From contig CM102286.1 in the NCBI GenBank assembly GCA_046563655.1, forward strand, positions 13,702,001 to 13,766,000: DNA of 64,000 nt, read 5' to 3'. The position numbers and the translations under genes are program-made. Positions within the stretch are counted from its first letter, which is position 1, and every line of letters begins with the position of its first letter. The notes beneath the pieces are model-generated. The model ran no database searches. It was not told the origin of the DNA and was given only the letters and a program-made list of their open reading frames with translations. Shown piece by piece: positions 4,218-62,804 of the stretch. This DNA is from Yuukianura sp. NJ FZ-2021. Taxonomy: Eukaryota.

Positions 4218-5004
4218 TGTGCTTTTTATGGCGGGAAAGTGTGAATTTCAATATTCGGATTGTGTCACACCTCCACTTTTTTGCACAAGACCTTCCTTCT
4301 CCTTGTTATTCTTCTCCTGACTTTCTCCTTCAATCAATTTTATGGACCGAAAATCCAGAATCCGTGTTCCTACAAGACGTACAACGCAAGGACATGGGTC
4401 ACTGCCACTTCCACTTTCACTCCAAATCACTATATCGATTTCTTTAGAGTTCAAACTAACCTAACAAAGTGTAGGCTAGACTAATATTAGTAGTCTAACC
4501 AACGGAGATTGACATTTGACCTCAATTGGTTATCAACTTTTTGCAGTATTTTGGAAATTGACCTCAATTACTCTCGCTAGGTTTTCACCTGGTTCAGCGT
4601 TTTAGTCGTTTTCTGTCCAATTTGCTTACGCCCAACTTTCACTTTCCAGTTCACAAATTTTTGCTTGGGAAGAGAAAGCAGATAATTTGGAGAAAATATA
4701 AATTCGTTTTTTCTATTTCTAAGTTTTTTCTATTCAATACTAGCTCAACTTTTGCAAAAAGTTGAAAATTTGAACAAACAATTTTTCGTTAAAATTTTTG
4801 CGAAAAGAGAAAACTATGGTGTTTTGTTCAAAGTTTTTGTTATAGTTTCTGTTTGTAACTTTTTTGAAGCAACTTTTCTATTCTTTTTTAGAAAATTGGA
4901 GAAAGTTGAAGGATTTTGATTAAGTTGAAAACAGAAGAAATTTGTGCCAAAAACGCCAAATTTTTGATGAGCAGATAAGCTGTCCTGTGTGTATTGGATT
5001 CGGG

Positions 5005-5360
5005 TTGAAGTTTTCAGTGTTCTTTTTCGACGCTGAAGTTTTCAGTGTTTTCACGACGTCAGAGTTTTCAGTGTTTTTTTCTGCAACCGCTAAGCGTTCA
5101 GTGTTATTTTGTCCAAGCTCTAAGTTTTCAGTGTTATTTTCACAAGCACTGCTGTTTTCGATGGTTTTTTCCGTTGCTATTAAGTTTTCAGTGGTACTTT
5201 CACCGAGATTAAAGTCTTCGGTGTTTTTTGCACAAATTTTCGGTGTTACTTTCACCAGCGTTCAATTTGTCTGTTTTCAAGGTTGTAGTTTTTGGTGTTG
5301 TTTTCACGGAGCGTCAAGTTTTCGGTGTTACTTTCACCATAGTGTATTACTTTCACCGAA
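5005..5360. repeat. Degenerate ~30-bp tandem repeat (AAGTTTTCAGTGTT... units)
   Basis: Recurring aagttttcagtg / ttttcggtgttactttcacc units. These produce the repetitive spurious ORFs 4920..5255 and 4942..5370. Confidence 0.8.
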
Positions 5361-27000: not shown

Positions 27001-28113
27001 TTCTCTGTCCACATATTGTCACGTTGACCTAAAATTGTGATCTTTCAATTCAACAAAAAGAAACACGAAATCAAGTCAAAGTAAAGCCAAATGTCAAAAT
27101 GAAGCGTTTTTTAGTCAAAACTTTTCAAAAGCAAACTTTCTTAAATAAAAATTTTTCAAAATGACTTCTTTACCCTTGTCACTTGTGTTTTTAAGACCAA
27201 TATTTTAAAAATTAAACAGCAATTGTATGTAATTTGGCTCGTGAAAATTATTTACGTTTGATAAAATTTTGAGAAACAATACAAAAAATTGGCAAATGCT
27301 TGAAATTGTTCCATTTCATGAAACAAACAATTACGAACTCAACTTCCTATAAATCACATGTTAGGTTGTACAGTATGAACAGTATATTATACTGTCAGTA
27401 TTTCTGGGTACTGCACAGTATCCGCATATTCTTTTCATAAATACGATTCTCAACAGATCTTATAATGATACACTTGCCGCACGCTAATTCCCGACGTCAT
27501 TTCACATGAAAAGTTGCTTCACCCCATGGGAACCCCAGTCCATTCATTACAAAAAAAAATTTCCTAGTACGCATGTGCACGGCGCACGATTCTACATGCG
27601 GATGCTCAAATTGTGGATTTTGCAAACTCAATAATTTATCAAAAAACTTGAACTATTAGTATTGGAAAACACAAATTTTGTTGGTGTGACCTTTCACATG
27701 GTCGAAAATTTTGAATTTTTCTTTTTTTTTTAAATTTTGTGACCTTTGACCTCTAAAAACTTACGTTGGCACTTTCGATTCTCTCCGACTGAACAAACCA
27801 AGCCAAAATCCGTGTCGCACGGTAACTCTACGTCGTTGCACGGATCACTCAACTGTTTGGCACAAACTAGACAGCATGAACAGTCTTTTCTGGGCAGTAG
27901 TCTACCGGAAGTACATTTGGCTTCCGTTAGGTTCCGGGCAGCACATGGTACAGCGCCGTCGCACAAACAACTTAAGTCATTTTCTGCTAACACATCACTA
28001 ATAAATACAACTACTAAACTAAGACTTAGCACAAAAAATGTTGTCGTGACCCTTGACCTCGGCGCCAGTCTTGAATTGTCTCTGAAGGACCGATTGTTCC
28101 ACTGGAGCCACAT
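15088..28113 (-). CDS. sas: Stranded at second (Sas)-like epidermal cell-surface receptor: signal, IGFBP-like, EGF-like, VWC repeats, FN3 repeats, TM, NPxF motif, PDZ-type C-terminus
   Basis: Approximate exons: 28113-27765, 25747-25493, 24358-23720, 22730-22197, 21385-21215, 20085-19904, 19834-19584, 19152-18041, 17868-17341, 17184-17125, 17043-~16917, ~16850-16653, ~16557-16410, ~16110-15722, ~15615-15497, ~15433-15226, 15138-15088. There are five VWC-type modules (C.Y/FxN..Y..GE.F.DGC…C.C…G…C). The three membrane-proximal FN3 domains carry Sas-like motifs (IDGVQVKY; WEGVPFPEDKFVNIF…DLKPGTRYRVWLEAFLTNG). TM is YYGALVALAIVATFSVIGIIALLMILI, followed by tail YDNPSFK and C-terminus …KSSEL*. Confidence 0.88.
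16150..16400. repeat. Intronic degenerate tandem repeat (TTCGGAAGATTGGAATTTAGGAAGTTTTG)
   Basis: Repeated units visible directly in a sas intron. Confidence 0.75.
23395..23655. repeat. Intronic ~45-bp tandem repeat (TGTTGAGAAAAATTGACAGAACTGTTTTT…AAATTGTCAGAA)
   Basis: About 5 degenerate copies visible. Confidence 0.8.
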
Positions 28114-29042
28114 TACGCTGATTCTCAAGTGGACAATTGACTAAAATTTAGAAACTACCTTAAAAAAAGTAAACACTCAACCGGATATTGACTTGTCGAC
28201 TTAGCGTCTCCTGTCCATTACTTGGACTCAAAATGGTTACAAGGATGTCATTATTGTCACTCCATTTCAGAAATCCAAAGTTACACTTTCTGAAAGTTAC
28301 ACTGAAATTTTGAAATGACCAAACCGTTACTTTGGGGAGTTATTTTGAGCCAGAAAAAGTAATTGTTCAAGGCCACAGGAAGCTCTGCAGGTAAACTTCA
28401 CTTTCACTTGGACAGAAACAGTAGAGCGATGTGTTCCAAATAGGTTAGGGTGGTTTTGGAAAATTTGGAAAATGGATTTAGAAAAAACTAGAACAGGACG
28501 AATGTTTTGAAGTGCCTGTTTGTTTCACTGACCGAAATAAACTATGTTGTATTGGCTTCATCAGGCTCAGAAGTGGAGGTGGTTGATGATCTTAAGAGGC
28601 TCAGAAGGCGACAAAGGGGGTAGAAGTGCCAAGGGGATGATGACGCCGAGATTGTTAGTTTTTGCTCAGACTTCCAACGTTATTGTGACTCTTCTGCTGA
28701 CTCCCTCGATGCTTCGATATCCTCCTAACAATTATTGTTTCCTTACAAGTTAGGTAAAGGTGAAACACGGGCGGAAGATGTAGGTGTGCTATTAAGTAGG
28801 AAGAGCTACTTTACTCATCCACCTTCTCTGTATGTCTGTCCGTCTGTCTACGGTCCATTACCGCCAACCTCAGACACGGCTAATCTGTTTTAAGAAACGG
28901 TTCTCGGATATTCGGATTTTTGTTCCGGATATAAATGCGAATTTTTGACGGATTCGGATTCTTGCAAATCGGGATCGGAAAAATGGAATCCTGATTTGAC
29001 GGCTTTTTCGTTCCATTTCAGGGTAGGAAAAATTGGAAAATG

Positions 29043-30497: not shown

Positions 30498-31920
30498 TTA
30501 GGGCGTCTCCTCTGTCATTTTGACCAAAACGGAAGAAAGATTCTGCATTGTCTGAAGTAATTGAAGATCCAGTTCACGTTTCTGCTTGTATTCTCGAATT
30601 TGCCGAGCTTCGGTTACTTCCCATCTCCGCTGAGCACTTTCTTCCATTGTGCGAAGCAGTGTTAGCCAAGATGGCGGCGGAGTGTCGTCGTTGTCACGAC
30701 GGTGATACTTGAGTGGCGGCGGTCCAGTGTTGTAGTCATCTTGACGATGATCGAGCATTGTGTTGTTGTCAAGGCGGTCACGAAGAGAAATGTTCAAATG
30801 CGGGCTGTTCAAGACCACACTGTGACCAAGACTTTGTGGCGAAGCCTGAAAGAAGAAAAAGTTATGATTTTTTTTGAAAATGTTACAATTTTAAGAAATT
30901 AAACTTACGTCAATATCATCCAGTTCATCTTGAAACCTTCGCTTATTCGGTTTCACTTCTTCAATTGTTATTGTTGGAGTTGGACGGAATTTATTGTTGG
31001 ATCGGTGATTTGTAACAGGCTTAATCTCAATCGGAAACTTGCGGACCTGGAGTGGAGGACTGTCTGCTTTCCTCTGAGGCGAGTAAGGTACTGCCGATAT
31101 TTCCAAATTGTCAACATGCGGCACATGATTGTGTGGACGAATTTCAATGTCACCTCGTCTTCCAATGACACCGTGATCTCTGGCTTCATCATCTGATTCG
31201 GTCAATGTCACGGACAAGAACTTATTTAAGTCACCTTCCACCTCCTCATTGTCATCAAACTCTTCTTCGACCAGGTTATCATCTTGATAGCCCCCCATGT
31301 CACCAAATGCAATGTCATCAGCGTTATCTTCGTCTTCCTGGAACCCATCTCCTCCTGCACCTTCTAAAGCCAGCTTCCTTATGCCAACGGGATCCTTCTT
31401 TTGCCAGTAAGTGAGCAAATCGTCATAAAATTCCCAAGTGTACGGAAATCTTCCTTGTTTTCCCTGCGATCCACGGCTAACTGTGCGACGAAACGATACT
31501 AACAGATTGCGCCACTTCTTGTCACCTAAAATAAATCCAAATACTTCGTTGTATACTACTGATCTTAGATGTTGTTGCGTGTGTTCATTACAAATGCTTG
31601 GAGGAAAGTCAAATCCATTTTCTTTGAGAGCCAGTGAAATCCGCTCCCAGAGGTCCATCTTCCTTTGATTCGGATCATCGAATTCTGCATCTAGTTCTGC
31701 TCTGATACGAATCAGTAGACGAGTTGCATCCTTCGTCCAGCTGTAGTTGACAATCTCTGTAATTTGATTTAACATTCCGAGTTAACACGTATAAATAAGC
31801 ATAACAAATGAAAGTGGGATTCTAATCCATTTTGACATTGACATTACTTGGATCTCGGGAATATATGACCTCATCTCCGACATCTCCCTCCTCCTTTACG
31901 GTCACTTCTCCTCGATACAT
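30498..31920 (-). CDS. Myb/SANT-like (trihelix / MADF-related) DNA-binding protein with C-terminal coiled coil
   Basis: Exons ~31920-31848 (MYRGEVTVKEEG…), ~31757-31592, 31525-~30908 and ~30846-30498. The motif W-TKDATRLLIRIR…F…LWERISLALKENGF…CDKKWRNL…W.FYDDL is typical of Myb/SANT trihelix domains. It is followed by an acidic linker and a C-terminal EESAQRRWE…ELDLQLLQTMQNL helix. Confidence 0.8.
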
Positions 31921-33705: not shown

Positions 33706-34571
33706 GTATCTCCAGCATTTCGCGGGCTTCTGAAACTCAAGGGCCGAAAATCAAGAGAGCCTAAGTTGAAAGCCCTAGTAGACGAGAGCCCTCCTCAAGT
33801 CCCGGTTGACAACCCTCCAGAATCCCACCATTCCTCAAGACACGAAGCACCAAGCTTAACCAGAGGACGACCCCATCGTCTCTTTTGGGGTGGGCTTTTC
33901 ACTTCAATTCGAAAGCTTCCCAAGAGATCTCGACACCACGAGACCAGTCAGCCCTCAATCGTCACAGTCATTACAACTTGAACTGAGGACTCTTCACCTT
34001 TTAAGTCATAAGTTCCCACTACTCGAATCAATCCTAACCTCTTAGGCCAAAACTAAAAGTTAGGCCATTTGAAGTTGTTGGACACTCCAAAGTTGGCTGG
34101 ATAACTAAAGTGGTCCTCTTTTCAAAAAACCCGGTTTTAGCACCAACTCTCAATTATCATCAACAGGAACAGTAGGAAGGGTTCTCACCTTTAGGCCACT
34201 TTAGTCCTTGAGAGACACACTTAAGAGTCCTCTTCCTGCTCTTATCCATTCAACTCCATCAAGGCTCATCACTAAAGTACTCTTGGAAAACTAAACCGAA
34301 TCATCATGTCAACTTATCCAAGTGTGGACTCCATAACGATAAAAGTATTGCATATCCGACTACTTTAAGAGTGAAAGTGAAGTGAACTCCAATTTGGGCC
34401 AATTCCACTCTTCGATTGGCCAAAGTGGACCGATTTCAAGGAAAGTGCTTTTGGCCCCAAGCGTTTAACGCGGGAAACGACTTTCACCGTCAAACGCAGA
34501 CTTTCACTGCTTCCGCTCCAGCGACCTCCTACTGTTCAGCTGAACTAAATAGAAGCAGTGAATTCTTCAAC

Positions 34572-34791
34572 TCAAAGGTCAATGACCCCGAATTTCTGAA
34601 TTGCAAGGTCAATGACCCCGAATTTCTAAATTCCAAAGTCACTGACCCCGAATTTTTGAATTCCAAAGTCACCAACTCCGATTTTCTGAATTCTGAAATC
34701 ACCAATTCAAAATTTTTGAAGAGAAATCAAGCTGAATTGAAATTTTTGAGCGTAAAGGTCAATGACCCCGAATCCGACAGGTCAAAGGTCG
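34572..34791 (+). repeat. 30-bp tandem repeat carrying IR1 nuclear-receptor sites (AGGTCAATGACCC)
   Basis: AGGTCAATGACCC at 34576, 34606 and 34756; variant AAGTCACTGACCC at 34636; DR1-like AGGTCAAAGGTCG at 34779. Confidence 0.8.
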
Positions 34792-34970
34792 ACAATCTCC
34801 AGTTCTCCTTTGTAACAGAAACTGAAGTGACAGGATTGGTTAATCCATCAATTGACGAACCAATCACCGTCGTAAAACAGATTTCAGATTCCACTTCAAG
34901 TAATTACGATCATCATCGAGCTGGAGACGCTACTTTTTCAGCGCTGGCTGACCGTCCAGGTGACCTGGCC

Positions 34971-37900
34971 ATGTCTTTGAGCCCAAAGTCACTCATCCAC
35001 GACCAGCATCAGCATCAGCATCAGCATCATCAGCTCCACTCCAGTACTGCGGCCCATTCAACCCCATTTTCAGTGTCCGACATCCTGAGTCCACTGGAAG
35101 AATCTTATCGCCTCTCAACATCAGCTTCTGGAAAATCCTGTTTAGAAAGCATCCCTTCATCAGCAGGAAGTTTAACCCAACTGGCTTCGGCTAGCAACTC
35201 GCCAGCATCTTCTCCCTACAACCCCAACAGTTCTAAACTATTCCAAGGTCAACTGTCTCCCGATACCCCAAATACTGCCAGCATCCAAAATACTTCCAGT
35301 ATGAACGTCCAGTCTACCTCGCCCTACACCCACATGCATGTGCCCCAACTGTCCCACCAAGCAGCAGCATTCCAAGCACAGTATTGCAATGGAGCTGACC
35401 TCCACGGAATGGCTGGTCACTATGGAGATGTCCGCAGTTCGGCCACAGCCGGCTGGTACGGAGCCACCGCTGGTGATCCGCGCTTTGCAAGTAAGTTTTT
35501 TGGCGGTTAATTTAAAACTTTCTAGAAATTCAAAAATTTCAAATCAATTCAAAGAAAAATTTCACCCCGGTTTTTTTTTCAAAAGTTGATTCCAGCTTCC
35601 CGCTTTTTTGTCCCGATGCTGGAGTCAATTAGGAGGGAAAGTTGATTTTTGAAAGTCCTAATTGCATTAGGCAGTTTGAACAAAATTTTGAACAGTTTGA
35701 ACACGAAGTCATTAGAAGAGGGAGTGCGGATGGTTGGTTTCACGGAAAAAACATGATTTGGTGTGCTGATGATGAAACATGGTTTATCTCCAATGATCCT
35801 TGATAATCTGTGGAAGTGAAATCGGAAGTTTCCCGCGTTTGTCTAAACTTTTTGAAACGTGACTAAACTTAAATTCAACTCAATCATGATGGTTTTAAGC
35901 AGTTGGTGCAAAACAGGCGGTTATTTTTTAAGTTTTTGAAAGCAAAGAACAACATTTGGAACCCCTTCCATCTTGATTCCCGGATTACGTAATATGTGAA
36001 ACCAAAAATAACATAAAATTTTGAAAAACTTTTTTTTTCGTTTTTTGTTGACGTAGTTCGTCTGATGGGATCATCGAGTGCCGGGATGAATATGAACGTG
36101 TCAAATATGTCAAGTTTGTCTGGATGCACTATGGGAACGGATCCAAAACCTATGCAGTTCCCTCTGTCACAGAGACGGAAGCGTCGCATCCTATTTACTC
36201 AAACCCAGGTAAAAAATCAAAAAAAGAAGCATATTTTTCAAAATTTAAAATCTGAACAAAATCAAAATGATTCAAATTTTTGCGAAATATTGTTGCCAAA
36301 CTCATTTGTCAAAAATTTTCATTGCTTTGGCTATGCAGCGCTGAAATTTGTGAAAATAATTTCAGAACTTTAGCTTAACAGGATTTGTAGGTTCTTCCTT
36401 GTTCATTTTGCTGCAGCTTTTCAATTACAAATTTTGGTGGTTTCACCGAAATTTGCTCGAAAGTAAAAAGGTCTGAGAAATTTTTTTCGTTGCTAAATTG
36501 AAAAATTGCGGGAATCTTTTAGTTTTGAACAAAAACTTTATTAAGGACTACAGTTTAGACACCAATTTTGAAATGAAGTGTAAATTATTGTTGATTATGG
36601 GCACTTTTAGGCTGGAGCGGGAGTTTAGTTTTGAGTTTGAAATCCAAAATGAAAACAAAGAGATCAAGGCGGTGTGTAAATTGAGTCAACAGAAGATGGC
36701 TCAGAGTTGATTAAAGATTTAGGGAAGGGCGGGAGACTGGAGAGGGTGAAAGTGTACTTTCCCCGGGAATTTCAAATTTCCTCGTTTCGCGGGAAACTGT
36801 ACACAGACGACTACTGTAGTAGGAGAAACAGTACTGAAAACTAGGGTTAGGATTAGGTTGAAGTTAGGTTGTGTGGAATAAGTTTAGGTTAACCCCTGAG
36901 GGGAACAGAGGGGGACAGAAATTGAACCTATTATTCAATTGAGTGAAGTCATATTAGGCATTAAAGGCTTTTCCTTTTAACCAATTCCTAAATGCTTTTA
37001 AAACCTTGTTTGATGAAGTCTCTCTCTTCCCAAAAGCTCAAGCGAACATTTCTAAACTTTGGTTTACGAAGATTCGAATCCGTAGGGTGGGGTAAAGTAA
37101 ACTGTTTCACCCTTCTGCATTTGAAAATTTCACAGTTCAAAAGTTCCCGCCGTTTGGAACTACCCGGGCATTTACTGCACTACCCGCTTTTTACTTTTGA
37201 ATCGAAAGTTTTGATTTTAGAAGATGAACGATGCCAAATAAATCGCATGAACAGATTTTGATTTTGGGCTTTCAAAGTTTGTTGTGGATGGAAAATGGAA
37301 AAACGCGGGAAATTTGAAAATTTTGAAAAACTGAACCGGAAAGATCAGTATCTAGGTGTAGTAAGTAGTTTTTGTGAAAGAAATACCATGGTGTTCAATT
37401 GTGTCTAAACCTACATTATCGCTACAATCTGACATTCCCATTGTTAACGATCATTCTGCATCATGGAACACCTTTTGTTGAGACACTCTGTACATTCAAA
37501 CCTTTCGCTCCATTCATAAATTTCTTTATACTCCACTTCATAACTACACAACTTCAAAAAAACTTACAAATTCTTCAAAAAAAATTTCAAGACTAACGTT
37601 TTTTTTCAAAACGCGTTTTTAAGAAAACATTGCCCACAGTGTAAAAATCGTAACACATTTTCTTCAAACTCTACTTGTCATTCAAAATTACATAGAAATG
37701 GGTCACAAATTGTAATGTGAAATTATAAACATTTATTTCAAAAAAGAAAATTTCAAAATTTCAAATTTCTTGATTCAAAATTTGAGATTTTTTTTTTCGC
37801 TCAACTTTCACATTAACGCCAACCACAACTTTGACAAAATGGAAAAGAATTTTGGACTTGAAAATAAAAGTTTAAACTTCCATTATTAGTGCAGTATCAA

Positions 37901-39631
37901 AATTTTTATATTTTTTGCATCAATTTTTTTTATTTTCCAGAAAAATAAATAAAAATTGTATTTTGAGAATTGACACAGTTTGAGGTCATGTCATGAGAAA
38001 CTTTGATTTTGAAGATAGAATTGTTGAGCCACAAAGTGTGGCAAATAGAGATATCCTATTTCTGAAAAATTTGAAAGAAATTTTGACCTTTCTAATTTTT
38101 CAAAATCCTTCAAAATGGAACCTTTGCTTTGACTTTCCTTGTCAGACCCTTGGAGGGGGCCCTTCCAAATCCCATTTACCTTCTTATTTGTTCCGAACAA
38201 CAATAATGCCCATCTTCTTGTGGTTTTTTGAACAATAGGTTTTTGAATTGGAGCGAAGATTCAAAACACAAAGGTATCTGTCAGCACCCGAGCGGGAACA
38301 ACTAGCCAGTCTCATTCAACTGACCCCAACACAGGTGAGTTTTGGAGATGACATTCTTAGAAGATGACATTCCATCACTCCCGCCTTCTTTTCTTAAGTG
38401 TCATCATCACCTCTAAAATTTTAAAATTTTGAATGGAAACCTCCCGGGAAGTTTTTCGAATTCTCTCGGGACCTCCCTTGTCATCTTAAAATTACTTTTG
38501 AGGTTTTTCTCAAGTGTTGATCCACTTAAGTAATTGTTTACTTTATCTTTTTTTGAAAAAGGTGAAAATATGGTTTCAAAATCATCGCTATAAGTGCAAG
38601 AGGCAGCAAAAGGAAAAACAAATGGCAGAACAAAGTAGTAATCAGGTAGGAACAAATTTGTGGCTTGAGGAGATGGAGGGAGAGGGAAAGTTAGAATTTT
38701 GGAGAACTTTATTGATTTTGTGTTTCTGTTTTTCTGGGAACTTTTTTTTGAAATTGATTTGTAAAATGTAGAGTTCACCACGACGTGTAGCAGTTCCAGT
38801 GTTGGTGAAAGATGGTAAGCCGTGTAGCAGTTCCAATGGAGAAGGGCATAGCACTTCAGGCGGATCAGCAGCTTCTTCTGGATCATCCGTAGAGCTCAAG
38901 CCGTTCATCGGAAACTCAGCGTCACCCAATTCACAGTCAGCGCTCGGTCTACAGCCAAACTGCTCCCAGGTACAGCAGCAATAAAAAAAATGAATTTTAA
39001 CAAAAAAATTCTAAAAGTATTTTCAAGGTTTCTTGACAACGGAGTTGGATTTCCTACAACAGGTTGTCTAATAACTTACGGTTTTCAAAAATATTGCTTC
39101 AAACAACTTTTAGCACCAATCCCATTTAGATTACATGCAAAAAACTACTATAGAAAGGAAGATTTTAAAACTTCAAGTTATTGGACAACCTTGTGTAGAA
39201 AAACTTTTCTGTTTACAAACCTTGTGTATTTTGTCTAACACAAAAATTTTACTCCATTTTTGTCTCTGAAAGATTTTTTTACTATAAGTCGTTTTTTAAG
39301 TTTTTTTTTTCTTTTCTGTTGTAAAGTTCTATTTTTTTTTGAAAAAAAAAACGAATTTCTAAAAACTTTGGAAATTTTGTGTTAACGCATAACGTTTTTG
39401 TTGTAGGGCGGTCCGATGGTTTCGTTTGGCCACCAGTCGGCGTCTGCGCATTCTGGCAACATTGCAGCCCTTGGTGGCTACCAGCGACATGCTTTGACCC
39501 CGACCTTGGGCATGGGGTCACACGGCCTGTCTCACCATCACCACCAACAGCAACAGCATCATCACCACCAGCAACAGAGCCTCATGTGTGCTACTCCATA
39601 TCTACCACAGCTCCCTTCAAGGGCCTGGTGA
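34971..39631 (+). CDS. scro: NK2.1-class homeodomain transcription factor scarecrow (NKX2-1/NKX2-4 orthologue), 6 coding exons
   Basis: Exons 34971-35490, 36057-36208, 38239-38334, 38562-38645, 38772-38969 and 39407-39631. N-terminus MSLSPK, then TN/eh1 motif [18 protein letters not shown] and [12 protein letters not shown]. Homeodomain [59 protein letters not shown] has Tyr54. NK2-SD is [17 protein letters not shown], and the C-terminus is RAW. Confidence 0.95.
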
Positions 39632-44400: not shown

Positions 44401-45292
44401 GCGGGAGAAAGTGAAATCCAAGAGCATACGTCCAACTTTTTTTGGAATTGGATTATTTCCCGCTTTAGTTTCTACCAGACAGGCAAAAAAAATTCCAATA
44501 TAAAAGTTTTTTTTTTCGGTCAGGTGAGAGTTTGTCTTTCGTTAGAGTTGAACTGCAGAGAAAGCGGAGAAAGTTTGCAAACGGAATGAGGAAGAAAATT
44601 CTTTTTCAGAGGTGAATTCAATAAAACCGAAAACGGGAAGAATTCCGGGCGACTCGGATGAGGTTGAGGTTGGCGTTTCCCGGGTGAAAGTTTGATGAAG
44701 GAGAAAGCAGCTTTAATTCAACCTACTTCAAACTAGTAGGTTGCCTAGGTTATGTTAGACTGGAGAGGTTACGTTGTGCTGGCTGCTGGGAGATGCTGCA
44801 TGTGCTTGTATTTCATTGGAGCTTCTCTGCTTTCACTACTTTCTCCATTGTCACGGCTTTAAATTGCATTTTGAAAAGGTGCGCGGTTACATTCCGAATA
44901 CTAATTGGGCAAAGGCAAACTTTTAGACACGACAATAAGGAATTTCTCTTGTTTCTTTTGACAAAAAAATGAAGGAAATTTTAAAAAGTTAAGGAGTTTC
45001 GTCGTAGAAAGCGCCAAACGGCTAGCGCAAGACAGGAAATTTAAAATACAAAAAAATGTGTGAAATAAAATTAAAGTTTGAAATTGTAGGAGAAGTGGAA
45101 CAAACTTTGCTAATTTAAGTTTAAGCACAATTTGAAAAAATGAAATTTTGAGTTTCAACTTTTTGCCAATTGAAATTTTGTTTTATTAGTTAATTATTGA
45201 ATTCCTCTAATGGTCCAGATAAATTTGTGTTTTGGAAACAAGTTTCGGAAAATGTTGAGTTTTGTATTTGAAATGTTTGGGAGACTAGTAAA

Positions 45293-46212
45293 TTACTTAC
45301 GCTTGTTAAACTCTTTATCAAAATCGTTGCTTTCGAAATCTTGCTCCAAAGATTCATCTTCATCTTGACGTTTCGTCAAATCTTTGGCGTCAAAATCCTG
45401 CTCCAAATCTTGTTCAAAAGAATCACTATCCCAAGCGTCGTCTTCATCTTGACGTTTCGTCAAATCTTTTGCGTCAAGATCTTGGTCAAGGTCTTTCTCT
45501 GCAGAGTTGTCCTCCGACCAATCATCTTCGTCTTGACGTTTAGTCAAATCTTTAGCGTCAAAATCCTGCTCAAAATCTTCTTCAGAAGAATCGTTTTCCG
45601 AAGCGTCATCTTCATCTTGACGTTTCGCCAAATCTTTGACGTCAAAATCGTCTTCGTCTTGACGTTTCGTCAAATCTTTGACGTCAAAATCGTCTTCATC
45701 TTGACGTTTCGCCAGATCTTTGACGTCAAAATCGTCTTCGTCTTGACGTTTTGTCAAATCTTTGGCGTCAAAATCTTGTTCGGAATCTTCTTCCCAAGCG
45801 TCGTCTTCCTCTTGACGTTTAGTCAAATCCTTTGCGTCAAAATCATCTGCGTCATCCTCATCTTGACGTTTCTTTCGTTCAGCAAAATCGTCTCCATCTT
45901 GGTCTTGGTCAAAATCCTCCTCCAAGTCAGTGTCGAAATCTCTTCTATCTGCTTCTAGCAAGTCATCAAACACCGAGCGCTTGTAGATGTCATTAAATGT
46001 TTGACGTTTTGACACTTCCTTTGCATCGAAAGCCAACGGAAGCCCAATTGCCACTGAAATACAAATATTAAAGCTCCCGTTTAAAATTTCCTGACCTTTG
46101 ACCTCTCCGCTAAAATTTTGTCCTCAAATGTATGTAGCCAAAAATTCGGCCAATATGTCCAACGCTTACCGCCAATTCCTCCTGCCAGGCAAAGGAAAAT
46201 GAACACCTTCAT
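45293..46212 (-). CDS. Orphan secreted precursor of tandem acidic peptides separated by KR dibasic sites (prohormone/Kex2-type repeat precursor), 2 exons
   Basis: Exon 1 46212-46170 (MKVFIFLCLAGGIG, donor G|gtaagc) and exon 2 46053-45293 (acceptor tttcag|TG; VAIGLPLAFDAKEVSKR…). The join gives an in-frame signal peptide. There are 12 KR sites, with repeats KR-Q(D/E)ED…(F/L)D(A/V)KDL(T/A)-KR. AATAAA lies ~110 nt after the stop. Confidence 0.85.
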
Positions 46213-48454
46213 TTTTCAAATTTCCAAATTTTTTTGAAAAACTTTTCTAATCAACTGTACACTTCAACTGTGAAATTCCTACTGCCAGTAACTGACTTTT
46301 TCCTTAACTTTTGTTTTTAAAAACCACAAAATCCGGGAAACAACCCAATGAAAAATTTTGTTTCTCGTGATTTCCTGGATATTGTAGTGGCAAAACCACT
46401 TTTAAGAACAAAAAATGCAAATTTCCTTCAAATTTTTTGGTAATGCCTAACTAATGCCTAACTTAAATATAAAAACTATCACCGTTTGCAATACTCAGTT
46501 ACTTATCTTATCTTTTGTCCCGACTTATTCAAGAATTCAATAATGTTTTGCCACTTGAACGATTATGAAATGCTGACCCCCACGTCAGCTCTAGTTGACG
46601 AAAAACAAATTCATGGCCTACTTTAAAAAAAACATCGATTTTTTCAAATTTTGAACAAACCTCATAGTAGTATTATCCAATGCCTTTCCATTAGAAGCCC
46701 AACGGTGTGGCTATGACCTCCAAAATTTTGACACTTTTGACGTGTACTCTATCAAATCCTTCCTGTTTCTTACTCTACGCTGCCATTTTGGAAAACGAAA
46801 AACATTTCTTTTCCATTATTTTTTTTTCAAAAACTGAAAGAAGACAGTGGGTGTGTTTCCCTTTTGAATTTTTGAAATTCGTTTTTGTAAAATTAACTAC
46901 AAAAGAGAAGTAGAGAGTTGCTGTCAGAGCATTTTGCTGAAGTCGAACATTTTGTGTCTTTTCGGATGCATTTGACACTTTTCCTTCTCAAGTATTTTCT
47001 CCACTTTTCTCCCAAGTTTTTGTCTAATTGGGGGAACTGTGTGATGAATCAATAGAGTTGTTGGCAGTTAGTAACAATGTTACAAGGGAAAAATATCATT
47101 CCAAAATGAAAAAAGTGAAAAAATGGAAAGAATGACAAATTTATTTGAAGAGGGGAGGGGAAAACTCGCTTGGGATCTTGCGTTGAAGTGGAAAAGAAAA
47201 TATAATTCTCCATTCGAGGAGGTTAGAGTCCTAGCTTTTATGACAAACCTTCTACAATCTATGTCGTAAGCCTCAAAAATTGCAATTGGCATTAAAATCA
47301 CAAAAAAAATTGTTACAGAGTTAAGTTAAATTTTTTATATGTTTATATGTAGTGTTTCAAGTTCTATAAAAAGCCAAATTCTGGAAGAATTTTAGTAGAA
47401 GTAACAGCAATTTATTTGATGACGCCGAGTAAAAAATGTTTCTGTTTACCTACCCTAAAACCCTACGTTGAAAACTGAAAGAAAAAAAAAGTAAGGAGAA
47501 AGCACTCGAAATTTATTGAAAGTATTGAATTTTCAAGTGTCACGGCATTGTCGTATTCTCTTTTCTCCAAAATTTTCTTGTAATTTCTCAATTTTTACAG
47601 TTCGTCAATTCCAAAGAATTCATAAACGAATTTTGCATTTGTCAACTGGAACTATAAAAGCAAAAGTTTTAACTACTATTATCTAATTTTTTTAAATGTC
47701 GTCTAAAGCAATGCTTGTTGTTTTTTTCATTCTCACTTCCTACTTTTTTCGCTGATTTTTGAAATGTTTTTCAGTTCCTTCGGCAAAGCATTGGTATTGG
47801 TGTAGGGGTACCAAAAATTTCATTTTTGTTGTCTTTTGTTTTTGGAAAGTCGTTTTAAAAAATTTGCTGATGCTTATTAGAAAACATGCCCTAATTGATA
47901 CAGATTTGTGAAAATGAGCCAGTACTACTGGAAGTACTGTGTGGCCCAGTTGATGGCCCTTTAGGTAGGCTGAATGATACTCTTGGGTGTCACTTGATGG
48001 ATACTCCACAGTTGTGGATGGATCTTCAGCACCTCCGAAGAGTATCATTCAAGGGACACTGGAGCATACTTCCACTACTGCAACAAATTCAAAATACAAG
48101 GCCCGCCTTTTACCCCCAAAGTAATTTAAGAGGGTTATAAACAGTCCCTTGGAAGGAGGGGGCCCTTCAAGTCTTCCCGCGCTCTCCTTTGAATCCAATC
48201 CAATGATATGATGGTTCAAGACGATAATGAGTCCAGTGATACTTGAACACAAAGTCAAGGCTCCTCCAGCCATAAGTGTTCTCAGCCCAAGTCCTCAGGC
48301 ACAATCGCCCTTAAGCAGCTACTTCATTCCAAACACTTTCAAAACATAAGCTAACAAGGGAGGAACTATTGGAACAAGTGATTTGTTTCATGAAATGAGT
48401 AAAACTAATTTAAACATAACCGAATTTCATGTTAGCTCAATAAAGTAAAAACTA

Positions 48455-48680: not shown

Positions 48681-51003
48681 GAGGCCTAACTTGAAGGAAT
48701 GTGTTTCCCATGCTCTTATCAGCTTTTCGCATCTTTTCTCAACTGTATCAGACACAAATCAGTCTTTTGTTGCTGATCAAAGGAAGATCTGCGGTTGAGA
48801 TTAGGTTAGGCTAAACCTAACTTTAATACAAAAACAGACCAGGGAGGGTCCGATGTGATGTTGATCCTGTCACTGTCCGCAAAGCCCGGAGGCACATTCC
48901 CACATCCTTGGCTGACTTCCTAAACCTGCCCTTAAGGGTACCTTTAATCTCTGAAATCCAATTCCCTTTGTTGTTTGAACAACAATTAGTTTAAAATTTC
49001 CCAGATTTCAGTGATTAGTAAAAGTAAAAGTAAAAAGTACTTGAGACATTCCCCATTCAGAACTTGGTGCGTGGAACTAATGATCTTGAGTTTGTTAGCA
49101 GGAGGGCCCCGCGTATTTTCAAATTCTCCAATGCAGAACAATGGCTATTAAGGATAGTACCTCAGTCGAGAGCCTTCCACAAGAAAAAAGAGTGTAGAAA
49201 AAGCGAAAGTCTCTCGTCAAGTGGGTTTTTGACAATTGTGGAAAGAGTGCTTCAAATTTTATGGGACACCGTTGGAAAAAGTCCTTCTGAATTTGAAGAT
49301 TCCCTCTGATCAGCTCTACTACAAATTGTTCAGTTTTTAGAAAGAATGGAATAAAGAATAATAGAAACGAAGCCACTCATGACCAAACTCTCTTTCTGCA
49401 GCACTGCAGAAGTTAAAAAAAGTTATAGGACAAATGATTTTCTGGAGGGACTTAGGAGGACCCTTAGCCAGTTGAAGTAGATCACACTTAAAGGGAGACA
49501 AAGGGTCACAGAATAGAATAATCCAATCCAAACTAATTCACTACGTTAGGTTTAAGTTAGGGTATGGAACTGTATAGCTCCAGGAAACAACGACTCACTT
49601 CCAGAGTCCTTAACTTCCTGGAAATTCCAGGAATCAAGCCTTCCAGAAAATCCAAAATTCACATAAAAAGTCAACCGACGCTGAAACTACTTTCAGCCCT
49701 CAAGCGATTTTCGTAAACTGCTGACCTGAATCCGGAAACTGCAAATTTCCAAACCTTGAATACAAATTAACATTAAAACGAACTAAAAGTAGACAATTTT
49801 TGGAAATTTAGAAAAATTCTCAACTCATTTCTCAACTTTACACAAAATTGACAAATTTTGGACAAAAACTGTTTTTGAAAAATTTCAGTGTACTGAAACT
49901 GTTGCCGGGCTAAAATCTGCAGAAGAGAAAGTTGCAGAGTGATTTCTCTTTTTTGAAAAACTTTTTCTTTTGCGAAAATGGTTTAGAAAAATTTGAAAAT
50001 TTTTGCCGCTTGCCGCTTTCGAACTGAAGTTGTTACGATTGCTTTCAGAGTAAAAAAAAAAGTTGGTGAGTGACATTTTATTTTTGTGTTTCGTAAAATA
50101 TAATTTCGTTTTTTATTTATTTACTTTTTGTGCAATAAAAGCCCCCTCCTTTTCCCCTGTCACCACTTTGGTACTTCTGCCAAAAATTTTGTTAGGTTTC
50201 ACCACGTACCAAAAACGCACACTGTGATATTGTTCTGGTTAGGTTTTTGGTAACGTTAGGTTCTTCGTGTTATCCAATGCATAATCCCATAGTAAGTTCC
50301 AAGTTGAACAAAATTACTTTCAGAAACTCCGCCGAAAGTTTCATTCCGTATTCCAGGAGCACTACTGTGTGCCATCTCAAGAGGCCCTTCAAGTACCCCG
50401 AAAATTCATACAAAAGAGATATCAAGGACCTCAGCAGCCCCAGCACACAGTTACGACGAGGGCAGAGGTTCGAAACCCACAGGCTGCAATGCTGCTGAAA
50501 AAGTTATATGTCGAAACAACTTTAGTTTCGAACCGAACTGTATGAAACTCCGAAATTTCGGTTTTTACCGTTCCAGCCAAAACTTTGCTACGACATAACA
50601 TAGAAAATTTCTTGCTGAGCTTTCCAATATTGTACTTTACCACCACCAACCACTTTCCTCTCTCTCTTTGCATCCATTTCAAAATTTTGAGAATGGATAC
50701 TTGAGAAAATATGCCTTGCTGGCTACGACGACCAACACAATTGAATCAAGAGGATTTTCATTCAATGCTTAAAGGTTTCCAAGCATCAGCACAATGACAA
50801 AATATCTTTTGCTAAAATGTAACTGCCAAAAAATTCTATTCTTTTCATCATCATCACGACGACGAACGACGCACACCGTCGAGCTACATTAGACAAAATG
50901 AAAAAAATCCACTTCAAAATGCTTCTCGTTGGACTTTTTTTTTCAAAACGGGCTCCCTTCGCTCATTCCAAAATCCAAGTAGATACTTGAGAGCAAATAA
51001 AAA

Positions 51004-54300: not shown

Positions 54301-57300
54301 TACCAACAGAACACTTTCAATTCTTCAATACAAACAAAAGGGCTCTACGAAATCCATTGTTAACAAAATACTACGCATAGCCTCGGGCGTTCCAAAGAAC
54401 CAACATGCAGTATTTATTGTTATGACACGGTCAACGCTGCCCTCAAGTCATAGCCTATTCAAGGTTCCATTAGCCACGCTTTGTCGTCGCATAATTTCCA
54501 ATCATCACACCAACACAAATACTAGTCGTCAAGTCCGATTTTTCAAAACAACTAACCTCCAAGTAGCATTTAAAAAAAAACTTATGCCCATTTAGCATTT
54601 TTGAAAACAAAAACACTGACACCCACTTAGCATTTCTGAAAAATGAAAACTGGAAAAAACTTTACATTTTTCAAACACCAACAAAACGCCCCGAGCAGAA
54701 CACTTTTTAAACAAAAATGTAGCGAAAATTATTCTCCTTGAACAAAAATTACTAAAAACTAAAAAGCGATGTTCGGATGCTGATTTTTTTTTTCTACAAC
54801 CACAGAATCCCATTCAAGCGTCAGCGTTTTCGACAATCGCTGAAAAGTAAAAACTTCGAACAGTAAAAACCTTATGAACGCAATCATCAGTGGTTCAATT
54901 GTTCAAAGAAGCAGAAGGTAAACGAAGTCTCTGAAGCGAAAACTGAATAGAACAACCTCATTCTTTTTTAAAAAGAAAATGAATTGGAAGAAAAAATGTT
55001 GATTTGTAAAGAAGATGTCAAGAAAATAAAAGATGAAATTGCCTCAGATCAACCATCCGAAATCCAACTATACAAACAGGAGATGATTTCTAACATCTTT
55101 TTAAGCATCATGTTTAAGATGTACATCAACATCACGCAAACTCGATAGGAAATGTTCAACTAAACGTTCAACGGTGATCCTGACATGAGACATGACATTT
55201 TCATTCCTTTCGAAAAATTTCGAATTCAAAAACCATCAAAAACTTACACATTTCGTCGTCAATTTCACAAAAATTACTTTCTCAACTACCCCAAAAATGA
55301 GAGAAAAATTTCCTTATTTTATATAAAAAACATTTTGTGTGACGTTAAGTTGTGCGGTTTTCAGTACTTATAAATTATGACATGAAATACGCAGAAATTT
55401 TCTATTCAGTCCAAGTTTTTGCTTTTTAAACCAGGTTTTCGGAAAACAGGAAACCATAAAATGCGAAAATTCGGGCGAAAAAGCTAGAAAAACGGTCGTT
55501 ACTTGGATATACCCCAAAAAACTGTAAAAGACGTGTACTTTTGGTGCTGGTGGAACAAAATTGGATTCCTGTTGGGGCTGACCGCAGCGTCCGCTCCGCG
55601 GCATCCTTCTCCAATTTTAACACCACAAATAAAAATCAATAGGAAACAGATACTGGACACCCCAAGAAAAGAAGAAACCAGATACTCCAGCACTCCCGGT
55701 TTTACACAGCAGCATTCCACCTTAAATTAAATGAAATAAAAACAACCCCACCCATTTCTACCACCAAAAATTAAACCCGCTAAGTTTTTCTACTTAAACT
55801 GACACCTTTCCAATTTTTAAATTAAATTCCTCACTTGTGAGAATTTAGATCCCACTGTAAATGCTAAAGTTAAGCCGAGTCACACGAAGATTGTCTAAAC
55901 GAAGGCCAGTTTCAGTGTGGTCAAATGCATTTAGAAAAGATTAAGTTCACAAAATGCTAACAGATTGACAGCCAACCAATCCATCAGAAGAACAAAGCGC
56001 AGTCAAAACTAACACTCTGCGATGGTCGTGTTGTGTTTGAAAGATCCGTTCGTGATGAACGGGTCATCGCCAATGTTCATCTCCCTTCAAAAGTCCAACT
56101 TGTAACTTGTCAATCACACCAGTCCAAACACTCTTTTTGTCTGTCCTAATCTCCTTAATACAAAAAACATGAAATTTCGAAATTCTTGTTTTGACTATTT
56201 TTTGACAAAATTTTGACTATTTGACCCAAAAAGCAATCCGTGTCCTCGTTACTCTGGATTTGGCCTAAAAATTTAGGTTTTGACCACCTCCAGGAATTTG
56301 CCGTCGAATCGAATTCATGAAAATCAAAAGCATTTCCGATTCCCACTCAAGAAATTCTTTTTTGTACCACGTATTGAAATTTTGTTTAGAAAACATTTTA
56401 AAACAAAAGAAATCAACAAAACCTCAGCGCTCCCATTCATGTCCATAACCAAAACTTTAGCACAACGTAAAAAAAACAGTTGAAAACAAAAAATATAAAG
56501 AGTTAAATGGTAATAACAAGTTAAACAGAGTGAATTTTTTTCCACTTTCACTCAATAACAAATTGCAAGCGGTTAGTCATAAAATTCAACCACTTCGTGT
56601 ACTTACCTCTAGGCGAAGGCGTGCTGTATCCACCGGACGAGTAGCTACTTCGTTCATGTCCATCGTAGCTGGAACTCCGATGACGTCCATTTCTCGTATC
56701 TTCAGTGTAAGGCGTATACCCGTACTGCGGAGCTGGATTGTTTCCCAAAGACCGACGATTGGCCATGTCCTGACTCCGAATGGCACTGCCCAATGCCCTA
56801 TGTCCAGAAGAATCTAAACTGGCTCTTTGAGTAGCATGAGTCATGCCAATCATTGGTCTCCAGTTCCTGGATTGCTCTGGAGTCAAGTCTCCTGGTTTCA
56901 ATACCGTCGGAGGATCCCTGGAAACAGAACAAAAATATAAAAATCTTCAACTTTATTTATAATATTATATGAAAGTTATTTTAGACTCATGTTAGAATTC
57001 GTAGGACTTTTAATTCTATGAACTAGAATTGAAAGAGTATTGTCAGATTCTACTTAATTTATCTCCGTTTGTTGCTAATTTGTTCATAAATTGAACTAAA
57101 CTAGCCTTTGATAGGAGAATTCTAGAAATTTCTATTATGAAAACTTACACTGCGCCTTCCAGACGAGTTGCTGGGAAGACATGGTCCGATCCAAATTTCA
57201 AGTCACGGAAGCGTACACTAGAAAATGAAAAAGTTTAAAAACAAATCTTTCAATCAGAAAACAACTTCGAATCTTGATAACTCACAGCGCTACTTGATTT

Positions 57301-60300
57301 TCAACAACATCAGGATTCTTTGGAATGGGTGACTGAAGAGAGCTGCAATGTTAGTAAAAGTTACACAAGTTGAGTAAAATAATTATAAAAAATCACAAAA
57401 TAAAATAAAAATACTGAAAGTCAGGAACGTAGCTTCATACCCGTTGAGAGCAACTAGTTCTTGAGGTGCCACAAGGACAAGTCCACCCATCCCTTCGAAT
57501 GCTGAAGGCTCCAGTGCGACTTCAGTACTCTCTTCAAATTGATTCTCGTACAGTCCCATCACAAAGTCGTAACCAGCATGGCCCTTACGGACGTACAGCC
57601 TGTCATCGCCTCGAGCATTTCGTCTTACTACAAAATCACAGAAGATATTCGAAGATATTCTTAACAATACTTTCTTCCTGCATTAAAAAAATTATTTTAA
57701 TAAACATTACCTTCTTCTGGCGTAAGTTCGCAATAGTGATCCTTCAAAACTTCCTTGAGACGAACTTCATCAACAAACGGCAGAAGAGCAACGCCCTGCC
57801 AAGCAAACTTCTTTCCGTTCAAATCCACTTGGAAGTCTTCCGGATAAAAGTCAATAATTGGTGATTCCTACAAACAAAAACAGTTTTATAACAATACTGC
57901 ACTATTTTTAAGAAAACTAAATTTCACTCACCGGATCACACATGAGTTCACCCCAAGGCTCTGGGACGTGACGTCGACTAGCAGCGGGAAAAACGCTCAT
58001 CAGCTGCTCGAGTGGAAAAAACTAAGAAACAGAAACGAAGTTTTTAGCATTTTCTCAAAATTTTTATGAAACTGTGTCAATTGAACAATAACTTACTGGC
58101 TTCGTGTTCTTATCGAATTCGGATGATAAATCTCCGACGTTGACAAAATCCGATGCAAATGGGGCGTAGTGGTACGGGTAATACCACTCCCAAGAGGCAC
58201 ATCCCTGTCAAGATAGGAAAAACAAGTTAATGCCTCAACTTTTAATAACTTGTTAAAAAACTTCAAAGTTACCTGATAGTAGTATCGTAGTACCCAGCAC
58301 AGACCTTTGACATATTCGTGCCCTACTAGAATTCGGAATTTGACGTTGTCCGGAAGAACGTCGAATTTGGATTCGTAGTAACGATCTTTGAATCCCTCTT
58401 GCCACAACCGAACTTCGTCATTCGGTTCGTCGTCATCTGAATCCTCGATTCGAGATTCTGCTTTTCTTTTGAGCGGAGTACGATTTACCATTGGTGATGA
58501 AAACCCTGGAGATGAAGAAGTCGAAGACGCAAAACTAGTGTCCAAAGACTGTGGCGACTACAAAACAAAAATCAAGTTGCAAAAAAGTTCGTAACATTGG
58601 TTTTGGTGCTAAGTACTATGACTTACATCTTTGCTTGTCATTGCAGCCTTTAAAGCAGCAGCAGCATCCTTATTTGTTCGCGGAGTATTGGCATTCGTGT
58701 GCATTCCTTGAACTCGCATATTGTAGGCTTCGTTTCGGGCGTTTTGAACCGGCGAATTGTTGTATCGGCCTACAGGCTGCAATTAATTGATTGATCGTTA
58801 ATCCTTTGATTAATTAAAATTGGAGCTTAGTGAAATGTTCAAATAAGCTTACCGAAGGTGCAAATGATCCTCCTGCAATAAAGGCAGGTTTGTCGTAGCA
58901 ATTCACATCTTCCATCAACCTTCGACGTTTTTCCGACTTCTGTCTAGCCCTGAATCTCAATTCATTGTTCTGTCGGTTTTTGAAGATTTCGTCCTCCATT
59001 GCTCCCAATTCCGACATAATCAGTTGCACACGAGCCAGATTCGGTACACCATTTTCCGTCAACCATCCTCCTGTTTTATAAACGCATTGCTTATACAGTC
59101 TCACCAGGCGATCAATCGCTCCTTCCCGAATTTCCAGCGATGGAAGATGAGGGAGGAAGTCGTTTCCAACAAAGAAACACATGAAGACCCAGTCATCCAC
59201 GGCTCTTTCCAAGTCAAACTTGAACGGAAGATTTGGCATGTCCAGTTCCTTTTGAAGATACTCCCGAAGCACATTGAGTCGTACAAAGATGAATTCCAAT
59301 TCACTACTGGCCGGAGGTGGATCGGGGCCGTCTTCTGGAACTTCTTTCTCCAGCCCCAAGCAGTCCTTCATCTCATGTCCTTCTTGTCCACAGATGTCAC
59401 AGGGACGGGCCTTGGTAGGACGAAACTCTTCTCGAATGATGGTGAAATTGGGTTCGTGAGTAGCCAATCCAAGCATGATCAGATCTGCATCAGCTCCGCA
59501 CAAACAGTGAGTCGTATTTGGGTTATGACCTGGTTGGGCCCGTTGTCGTCGAATAAAATCCATGACTTTGTGTTCTCCTTCACCGGGAACGTTGGCGTCT
59601 GATAAAATTACTTTGATGTTTCTCCAAGCTGGATCCGTGTTGAGACGGTCGTGAATGTAGTAATTCAGTGCTTTTGACAGCCGATCCATAAATGGAGTTC
59701 CCTGCATGATAGGAGAGAAGTATTTTACAGGAGCTATAGGTTATAATAACATCTCATTTATAAGTAAAACACTTACGGGAGTAATGCAATTACTATCAAA
59801 ATGGGCACTTCGTTCTTTGGCGGGCGGAAGTAACAGGCCCCTTGCCTCCATATCCTCCCGGATACGTTCGATTTCGTTTAGTTTTTCAGTTGTTTCTTTA
59901 GTGGCACGAAAACGTCGTGAACGTTGCTGATTCATCTTAGCTCTGGGAGCCTATCAATGAAAAGTAAGTAAACAATTTAACTTGACGTAATTCAACAAGG
60001 TCATGTTATAGAAAACAGTATCCGTTCATACCACACCGTCGATGGCCATGTACAACAGTTTCCGCGGACGTACGATCCGGAAGAGTCGATCAATACATTC
60101 AAAAATGGCAATCATCATCTCATCCTCATTCTTGGGAGGCGGCCTGAGAGAATCATTACAAACGTTAGATTAACCGCTCTACAATTAACACTAAATTACA
60201 AGTTCAGATACATGGAGTAAATTCTACTTATTCTCCGGATGCGTGCAAGGATGAATGATACCGTTCATGTCCAGGTATAAGTTATCAAATTCAACGCCAT

Positions 60301-60505
60301 TGGGATTAGGTGCCGTGGAGTCCACTGGAACTACAACACCGTCAATCATAGCCGTCTAATAACAAAAACGGGTTAATTTCAAGTGCCAATTCCACATAAT
60401 ACTAAACAGCAGCAGCATGTAATTGATTACCTTATCCTCCACGCAATGTACAATTACCGATGGATACTTCTTTGTCAACCAACGAAAGAACGATGGAACT
60501 CCCAT
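51317..60505 (-). CDS. XRN2: 5'-3' exoribonuclease 2 (XRN2/Rat1), ~16 exons, with Gly/Arg/Tyr-rich C-terminal tail
   Basis: ATG 60505 ([16 protein letters not shown]). Hallmarks: [51 protein letters not shown] knuckle [25 protein letters not shown] and WVLRYYYQ. Terminal exons 56918-56607, 52329-52173 and 51521-51317 join in consistent phase (1, then 2) and encode an RGG/YGG-rich tail. Confidence 0.95.

Positions 60506-60961: not shown

Positions 60962-62804
<1,843 letters not shown>

Follow-up and report, generated by a model that had tools for sequence, protein, structure and literature searches.

A two-exon orphan gene for a candidate multi-copy precursor of acidic peptides in Yuukianura sp.

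Known precursors and the candidate gene

Drosophila Sparkly (Spar, CG4577) is an acidic, Cys-free, lineage-restricted precursor with dibasic sites, the convertase processing of which was shown by mass spectrometry; its authors compare it with secretogranins, of which, they point out, Drosophila has no known example (PMC11196111). Drosophila Baramicin is an immune precursor that is cut by furin into several peptides (PMC8423362), and in fungi the Kex2-processed repeat proteins (KEPs) are defined operationally by a signal peptide, internal repeats, and KEX2 sites (KR/RR) between the repeats (PMC6339444). For non-pterygote hexapods, 39 families have been catalogued in a survey that searched for known families only; the protein described below is not among them in the available part of that source (PMC4770511). 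The current study concerns a minus-strand gene (nt 46212–45293) in a 64,000 nucleotide (nt) stretch of contig CM102286.1 of Yuukianura sp. NJ FZ-2021 (GCA_046563655.1, positions 13,702,001–13,766,000), hereafter the window, to which all coordinates refer. It specifies a hydrophobic leader followed by tandem, Gln-initiated and highly acidic units that end in Lys-Arg (KR), and the favoured interpretation, at about even probability, is a lineage-restricted, convertase-processed, multi-copy precursor of polyanionic peptides capped with pyroglutamate (pyroGlu).

Two exons join in frame to give a coding sequence of 804 nt and a protein of 267 amino acids (aa). The parts of the gene, and the signals around it, are as follows (the last three entries come from a pattern search and are consensus-level matches only).

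46212–46170, minus strand: exon 1, 43 nt, with the ATG at 46212; the first 14 codons plus one base, with which the predicted signal peptide begins
46169–46054, minus strand: intron, 116 nt, phase 1, GT-AG (GTAAGC...TATTTCAG), with a pyrimidine-rich acceptor end
46053–45293, minus strand: exon 2, 761 nt, with the TAA stop at 45295–45293
46053–46043, minus strand: remainder of the predicted signal peptide, to residue 18, at the start of exon 2
46042–45866, minus strand: non-repeat pro-region, residues 19–77, with KR, KR, RR and RKKR sites; QTFNDIY and two or three acidic peptides are predicted from it
45865–45299, minus strand: array of nine Gln-initiated acidic units, residues 78–266, every unit closing with KR
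45745–45620, minus strand: sub-array formed by three units of 14 aa, each a 12-mer peptide with its KR, Tandem Repeats Finder period 42
45619–45368, minus strand: sub-array formed by three units of 28 aa, which carry acidic inserts rich in Ser and Trp, Tandem Repeats Finder period 84
45298–45293, minus strand: last Lys codon and TAA stop, from the reading frame
46314..46321, minus strand: TATA-like A/T box TTTAAAAA, 109 nt upstream of the ATG
46291..46295, minus strand: Initiator-like TCAGT, followed 83 nt later by the ATG and preceded by the A/T box at a distance of about 28 nt
45182..45187, minus strand: AATAAA polyadenylation-type signal, 105 nt past the stop

The stop-to-stop frame around exon 2 runs for 276 codons without a single Met, and the initiator is the only Met of the spliced protein; exon 1 is therefore required to start translation of the long frame. 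In length and splice sites the candidate 116-nt intron fits the pattern of the neighbouring XRN2 gene, whose six introns, delimited by aligning a collembolan XRN2 protein to the window, measure 54–252 nt and have GTAAG, GTGAG, GTAAC or GTAAT donors and YAG acceptors behind T-rich tracts. The TCAGT upstream of the ATG is presumably a match to the arthropod initiator consensus, and the AATAAA is the sole AATAAA or ATTAAA in the 393 nt searched downstream of the gene. A perfect GTAAGT at 45300–45295 (minus strand) overlaps the final Arg codon, the Lys codon that follows it and the stop, and could serve as a cryptic or alternative splice donor. An extra exon downstream of this site was considered and rejected by eye, as the minus-strand frames below nt 45293 look non-coding.

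The leader (residues 1–18) is strongly hydrophobic, with a mean Kyte-Doolittle hydropathy of 2.07 over residues 2–22 versus −1.90 in the rest of the protein. The secretory call is based on this hydropathy and on inspection, cleavage after residue 18 having been placed by eye from the small residues found there (the −3/−1 rule). Within the pro-region the dibasic sites lie at residues 30–31 (KR), 39–40 (KR), 51–52 (RR) and 74–77 (RKKR), and the predicted early products are the 7-mer QTFNDIY and then SVFDDLLEAD ahead of the RR. Each of the nine units begins with Q(D/E)ED and ends with KR, their lengths being 17, 23, 14, 14, 14, 28, 28, 28 and 23 residues; three of the nine predicted unit peptides are 12-mers, QDEDDFDVKDL(A/T), and the tail (F/L)D(A/V)KDL(T/A)KR is present in eight units, that of the remaining one being related. 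The periods reported by Tandem Repeats Finder, 42 nt (4.1 copies) and 84 nt (3.5 copies), are both divisible by three.

The whole protein has 12 KR dipeptides, one RR and one RKKR, and all 15 of its Arg residues sit in such di- or tetrabasic sites. Ten of the 12 KR directly precede Gln, one of these sites being outside the repeats, and none is preceded by Gly, the amidation signal. The single Cys lies within the leader. Asp makes up 27% and Glu 11% of the residues (38% Asp or Glu), and past residue 18 the net charge is −63; five S-x-E motifs are spread over four of the nine units. An AlphaFold2 single-sequence model is a low-confidence coil almost without secondary structure (predicted local distance difference test score 53.6, predicted template modelling score 0.12), and the chain past the leader is predicted to be intrinsically disordered. 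An earlier description made from the letters and their reading frames, without database searches (here called the sequence-only reading), had proposed the same spliced model, with a 43-nt exon, an intron at 46169–46054 and a protein of about 267 aa. The joined exons and their translation agree with it on this point, as well as on the N-terminal signal peptide (found here as the hydrophobic leader with small residues at −3/−1), the 12 KR sites, QTFNDIY, the SVFDDLLEAD… peptide, the nine Q(D/E)ED peptides, the three 12-mers, the eight shared tails, the absence of an amidation signal, and the S-x-E motifs.

Among the systems compared, Sparkly is the closest in kind. Like granins and Sparkly, the Yuukianura protein is acidic, Cys-free past its leader and rich in dibasic sites, with predicted products that would be unamidated, and it is taxonomically restricted, as Spar is. 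It differs in being composed almost wholly of paracopies, which the Spar peptides are not, and in its net charge, −63 as against the −6 reported for Spar (PMC11196111). While granin-type composition and multiple dibasic sites are present, known here from sequence only, no granin homology was detected, with no Pfam family at E ≤ 1 and no granin among the seven matches of a phmmer search (see below). With Baramicin it shares the plan of one secreted precursor that yields several repeated peptides by convertase cleavage (here predicted), but it has only one furin-type RKKR and its products would be polyanionic, the two being set apart by description only. Measured against the generic class of multi-copy precursors, it has a signal peptide (by hydropathy) and KR-flanked copies with an excess of dibasic sites, and lacks the Gly amidation signal, which is frequent in that class, not obligatory.

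Coding constraint among the repeat units

Eight units were compared in all 28 pairs, over the five codons of the head and the ten of the tail. Among the 139 pairwise differences, 98 fall at codon position 3, with 26 at position 1 and 15 at position 2. The proportions of synonymous (pS) and non-synonymous (pN) differences depend sharply on the frame in which the units are read:

Proposed frame: pS 0.467, pN 0.039, pN/pS 0.08
Frame shifted by 1: pS 0.087, pN 0.126, pN/pS 1.45
Frame shifted by 2: pS 0.108, pN 0.120, pN/pS 1.11

Taken separately, the three 28-aa units give pairwise pS values of 0.29–0.82 and pN values of 0.085–0.195, and the three 14-aa units give 0.14–0.27 and 0–0.03, respectively. 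The KR and Gln codons are unchanged in all eight units compared, and both the unit lengths and the indels between units are multiples of three throughout. High synonymous divergence together with low pN means that the copies are old, and that each has been retained by purifying selection.

A non-functional origin, either as a minisatellite that is open by chance in one frame or as a decaying relic, is very improbable in the face of these figures. Repeats do inflate the length of open reading frames (ORFs), the plus strand opposite the array carries an open frame of its own (228 aa, nt 45272–45958), and protein searches returned no homologue, all of which would be expected of such a sequence. 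The positions that vary between repeats, however, coincide with codon position 1 of the plus-strand ORF, which marks that frame as a by-product of the repeats mirrored on the other strand and not as a gene. The bias towards third positions, the low pN/pS in the proposed frame only, and the in-frame indels are likewise at odds with a chance frame, as is an in-frame ATG exon that supplies a hydrophobic leader and comes with matching splice sites and a polyadenylation signal. Judged by its pattern of codon differences and its gene signals, the two-exon feature is a real protein-coding gene.

Predicted processing and alternative fates of the protein

Because the repeat copies are not independent of one another, the distribution of dibasic sites was tested on the non-repeat residues 19–77. 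All six Arg in this segment stand in a dibasic context, a result equalled by 301 of 100,000 shuffles, and at least three KR were obtained in 560 of 100,000. When the same two tests were applied to a reduced protein, assembled from the non-repeat part plus a single 28-aa unit and the final unit, the corresponding figures were 21 and 15 per 100,000 shuffles. Dibasic sites are clustered non-randomly in the non-repeat part too. Convertase substrates are typified by Arg that occurs only in dibasic sites, a point also made in the Spar account (PMC11196111).

According to the favoured interpretation, the hydrophobic N-terminus would bring the 267-aa preproprotein into the endoplasmic reticulum, where the remainder would form an intrinsically disordered, Cys-free, polyanionic chain. 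Subtilisin-like proprotein convertases would cleave this chain at RKKR (furin-type) and at the 12 KR (PC2-type or relaxed furin activity), nine of the cleavage sites having the form L-(T/A)-K-R followed by Gln. A carboxypeptidase would then remove the terminal K and R, and glutaminyl cyclase would turn the exposed N-terminal Gln into pyroGlu; phosphorylation by a Golgi kinase may occur at the five S-x-E sites. The output would be about twelve secreted peptides, nine of them paracopies of 12–26 residues that start with pQ(D/E)EDD; eight of these would end in (F/L)D(A/V)KDL(T/A). With regard to their role, the first preference is for peptides with a neuroendocrine or paracrine action, or for an acidic, granin-like cargo carried in dense-core vesicles, and the second is for extracellular cation-binding or anionic defence peptides. 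A more far-reaching proposal is that animals have, in this gene, an equivalent of the fungal KEP strategy: an orphan of the springtail lineage would turn out pyroGlu-capped and possibly phosphorylated polyanionic peptides in bulk. Outside the cell these would chelate Ca2+ or other metals, take part in anionic defence, or carry chemical signals in the soil; alternatively, as a functional granin analogue, they would organise dense-core vesicles in a group where no granin is known. This proposal is regarded as rather doubtful.

Several considerations weigh against processing into peptides. The P4 Arg of a furin site is found in only one of the 13 dibasic sites (RKKR), and the other KR sites would need PC2-type or relaxed furin activity, which is cell-type dependent. 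The most conserved stretch, of 15 residues, spans the KR (tail-KR-head) and the centres of the units vary by 0–14 residues, a pattern that also fits an uncleaved protein with a repeated linear motif. Products that are all anionic and unamidated, as predicted here, are atypical among arthropod neuropeptides. The constraint described above was measured between copies of one gene, the pairs of which share ancestry, provide 7–14.5 synonymous sites each, and may have undergone gene conversion. Splicing and peptides are predictions from the genomic sequence.

The first two of these points lead to the main alternative, itself judged somewhat unlikely: that the protein is secreted but left uncleaved, as a polyanionic, disordered repeat protein in which KR-Q is simply part of the conserved 15-residue motif. 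It could then be a Ca2+ or metal binder of low affinity and high capacity, a component of matrix, cuticle or secretion, or a desiccation protectant. The peak of conservation across the KR and the variable lengths of the segments between them are consistent with this, as are the acidic composition and charge, the disorder of the AlphaFold2 model, and the 12 of 13 dibasic sites that have no P4 Arg. It accounts less readily for the restriction of Arg to dibasic sites outside the repeats as well, or for the Gln placed immediately after most of the KR. Moreover, acidic structural proteins usually keep their composition and not an exact motif, whereas here pN is less than a tenth of pS in the units.

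It is also conceivable, though improbable, that a single bioactive peptide is released from the N-terminal part, for example the Gln-initiated 7-mer, and that the acidic repeats are a spacer or sorting domain. The 7-mer QTFNDIY has a KR on either side, carries Gln in first position and is less acidic than any other predicted product, and acidic pro-regions are common among peptide precursors. Both ends of each repeat are under strong purifying selection, however, which a mere spacer would not need, and the searches found no orthologue in which conservation of the 7-mer could be followed.

Relatives, genomic setting and significance

No relative of the precursor was found in any of the collections searched. 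A phmmer search of 1.84 billion representative proteins gave no homologue; its seven matches at E ≤ 0.001 were all read, and proved to be unrelated periodic repeat proteins without the combination of signal peptide and KR-Q architecture. Pfam returned no family, and the PDB sequence search no entry, at E ≤ 1. A word-seeded search with the exon 2 protein found nothing at E ≤ 0.01 among 8000 scored candidates, which were restricted to lengths of 138–441 and may have been swamped by acidic words. In metagenome contigs there were 61 pattern matches, none of which was confirmed as a related locus, the patterns having been drawn from variable parts of the protein. A degenerate back-translation of the tail-KR-head motif, with Arg as CGN only and an exact amino-acid match needed, was absent from metagenome, prokaryote-genome and viral contigs. 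The best score in the ESM Atlas, 0.81, is below the level of a lead, since 0.8 or more was attained by one third of shuffled proteins. Within the window, tblastn with the protein disclosed no paralogue, its next-best matches (E 0.01–6) being acidic stretches of other genes, and Rfam gave no match over the whole 64 kb. In the literature searched, three 7-residue strings from the repeats were unmatched, and this protein is not described in the papers retrieved on neuropeptides of Collembola, on anionic or multipeptide precursors, on acidic proteins of springtails or on granins of invertebrates.

Orphan status, as used here, covers annotated proteins together with the reachable metagenome, prokaryote and viral DNA, and unannotated arthropod genomes lie outside those collections; that the gene is unique to one species does not follow from it. 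The 43-nt first exon and the low-complexity body of the protein probably explain why similar entries are absent from protein databases. By these searches the sequence family is new and its architecture a known one.

The genes recognised on either side of the precursor are the following.

38502–38768, plus strand: homeodomain exon of an NK-type homeobox gene (Pfam match, E 3.3e-05)
50285–50542: weak DBR1-like ORF, from the Pfam scan of window ORFs
56791–60505, minus strand: XRN2 (5'-3' exoribonuclease), at least seven exons, introns of 54–252 nt
61153–61539, minus strand: exon of an AAA ATPase, proteasome regulatory subunit-like by eye

An XRN2 exon has its best matches in two Collembola, followed by insects, at 70–78% identity. 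In a maximum-likelihood tree of 22 XRN2 proteins, picked for taxon spread from 120 listed, the window sequence sits on a long branch and clusters with these two Collembola, with 98/94 support. The flanking genes are arthropod-like, and the placement of XRN2 is that of a springtail or a close entognathan relative, whose proteome the databases lack. G+C content around the precursor gene is 0.385, inside the range of 0.335–0.432 seen across the window. Between about 39 and 50 kb, no further Pfam-recognisable ORF was present among the 80 ORFs of at least 70 aa scanned.

These data bear on two related alternatives, that the gene is a horizontally acquired fungal KEP or that it belongs to a described arthropod family such as the orcokinins, which together form the least probable of the explanations considered. 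The protein does fit the three operational KEP criteria (PMC6339444), and the nearest ESM Atlas clusters are fungal, albeit at the uninformative score given above. It departs from fungal KEPs in lying in an arthropod genome, between arthropod genes, in having a host-type intron and the G+C content of its flanks, in lacking an XA/XP (STE13) signature past the KR, and in having no fungal or other homologue among the 1.84 billion representatives. As in the orcokinin precursor of arthropods, a signal peptide is followed by tandem, near-identical, KR-flanked copies with acidic, unamidated products (predicted in the present case), and the setting is a hexapod genome. The tail of the units, xFDxxDx(S/T), even loosely resembles the start of orcokinins. 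Compared by eye with the available peptide list (PMC4696782), however, there is no sequence relationship: this stretch lies at the C-terminal and not the N-terminal end of the peptide, before the KR instead of directly past it, a GFGF-type C-terminus is missing, and the peptides, at 12–26 residues, would be far more acidic. The sequence-only reading had raised possible horizontal acquisition, and this has found no support, given the intron, the G+C content, and the lack of any fungal, prokaryotic or viral relative in the searches. The flanking genes and the grouping of XRN2 with Collembola mark the genomic context as arthropod, and the statement in the sequence-only reading that the peptides were not recognised as any known arthropod neuropeptide family is in accord with the searches of Pfam, PDB and the representative proteins and with the word-seeded search.

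Other parts of the window contain further features. Upstream of the homeodomain exon, an ORF at 34386–35507 (plus strand) has tandem units of about 10 residues in its first third and a sub-threshold match to Pentapeptide_4; the arrangement suggests that the ORF and the exon belong to one NK-type homeobox gene, the 5' part of which contains or follows a repeat. The minus-strand ORF at 30894–31781 encodes a Myb/SANT-like DNA-binding domain (PF13837, E 4.1e-11), and its relatives at E ≤ 1e-5 are confined to three unnamed JGI or Logan proteins (63, 58 and 47% identity), a scarcity that shows, as far as such matches go, a lineage poorly represented in protein databases. At 27733–28140 (minus strand) a hydrophobic stretch is followed by a Cys-rich segment with an IGFBP N-terminal match (E 3.1e-05; 25 bits, below the 28-bit cut-off), and this ORF may specify a secreted protein of the insulin-binding type. 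A run of large minus-strand ORFs from 15637 to 24398, with an fn3 match (E 7e-08), a sub-threshold TILa match and Cys-rich stretches, is probably one large multi-exon gene for an extracellular protein; within the run, the ORF at 23712–24398 (minus strand) is acidic and His-rich. Finally, nt 4920–5599 hold overlapping ORFs of 113–148 aa on both strands, over a short-period repeat rich in T-E-N-type units that looks like a minisatellite.

The finding alone does not open a long-standing question, and lineage-restricted precursors of such a general kind are regularly found. Paracopies that are all anionic and capped with pyroGlu would be unusual, and are directly testable by peptidomics. The gene also illustrates how a short first exon and a low-complexity body let genes of this type escape annotation. 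Its practical value lies in the exact peptide masses that it provides for peptidomics, and in a short conserved motif with which entognathan genomes can be searched. If the peptides are made, a new and unusually anionic family would join the small set of lineage-restricted secretory precursors of hexapods, and its source would be an early-branching and little-studied hexapod group.

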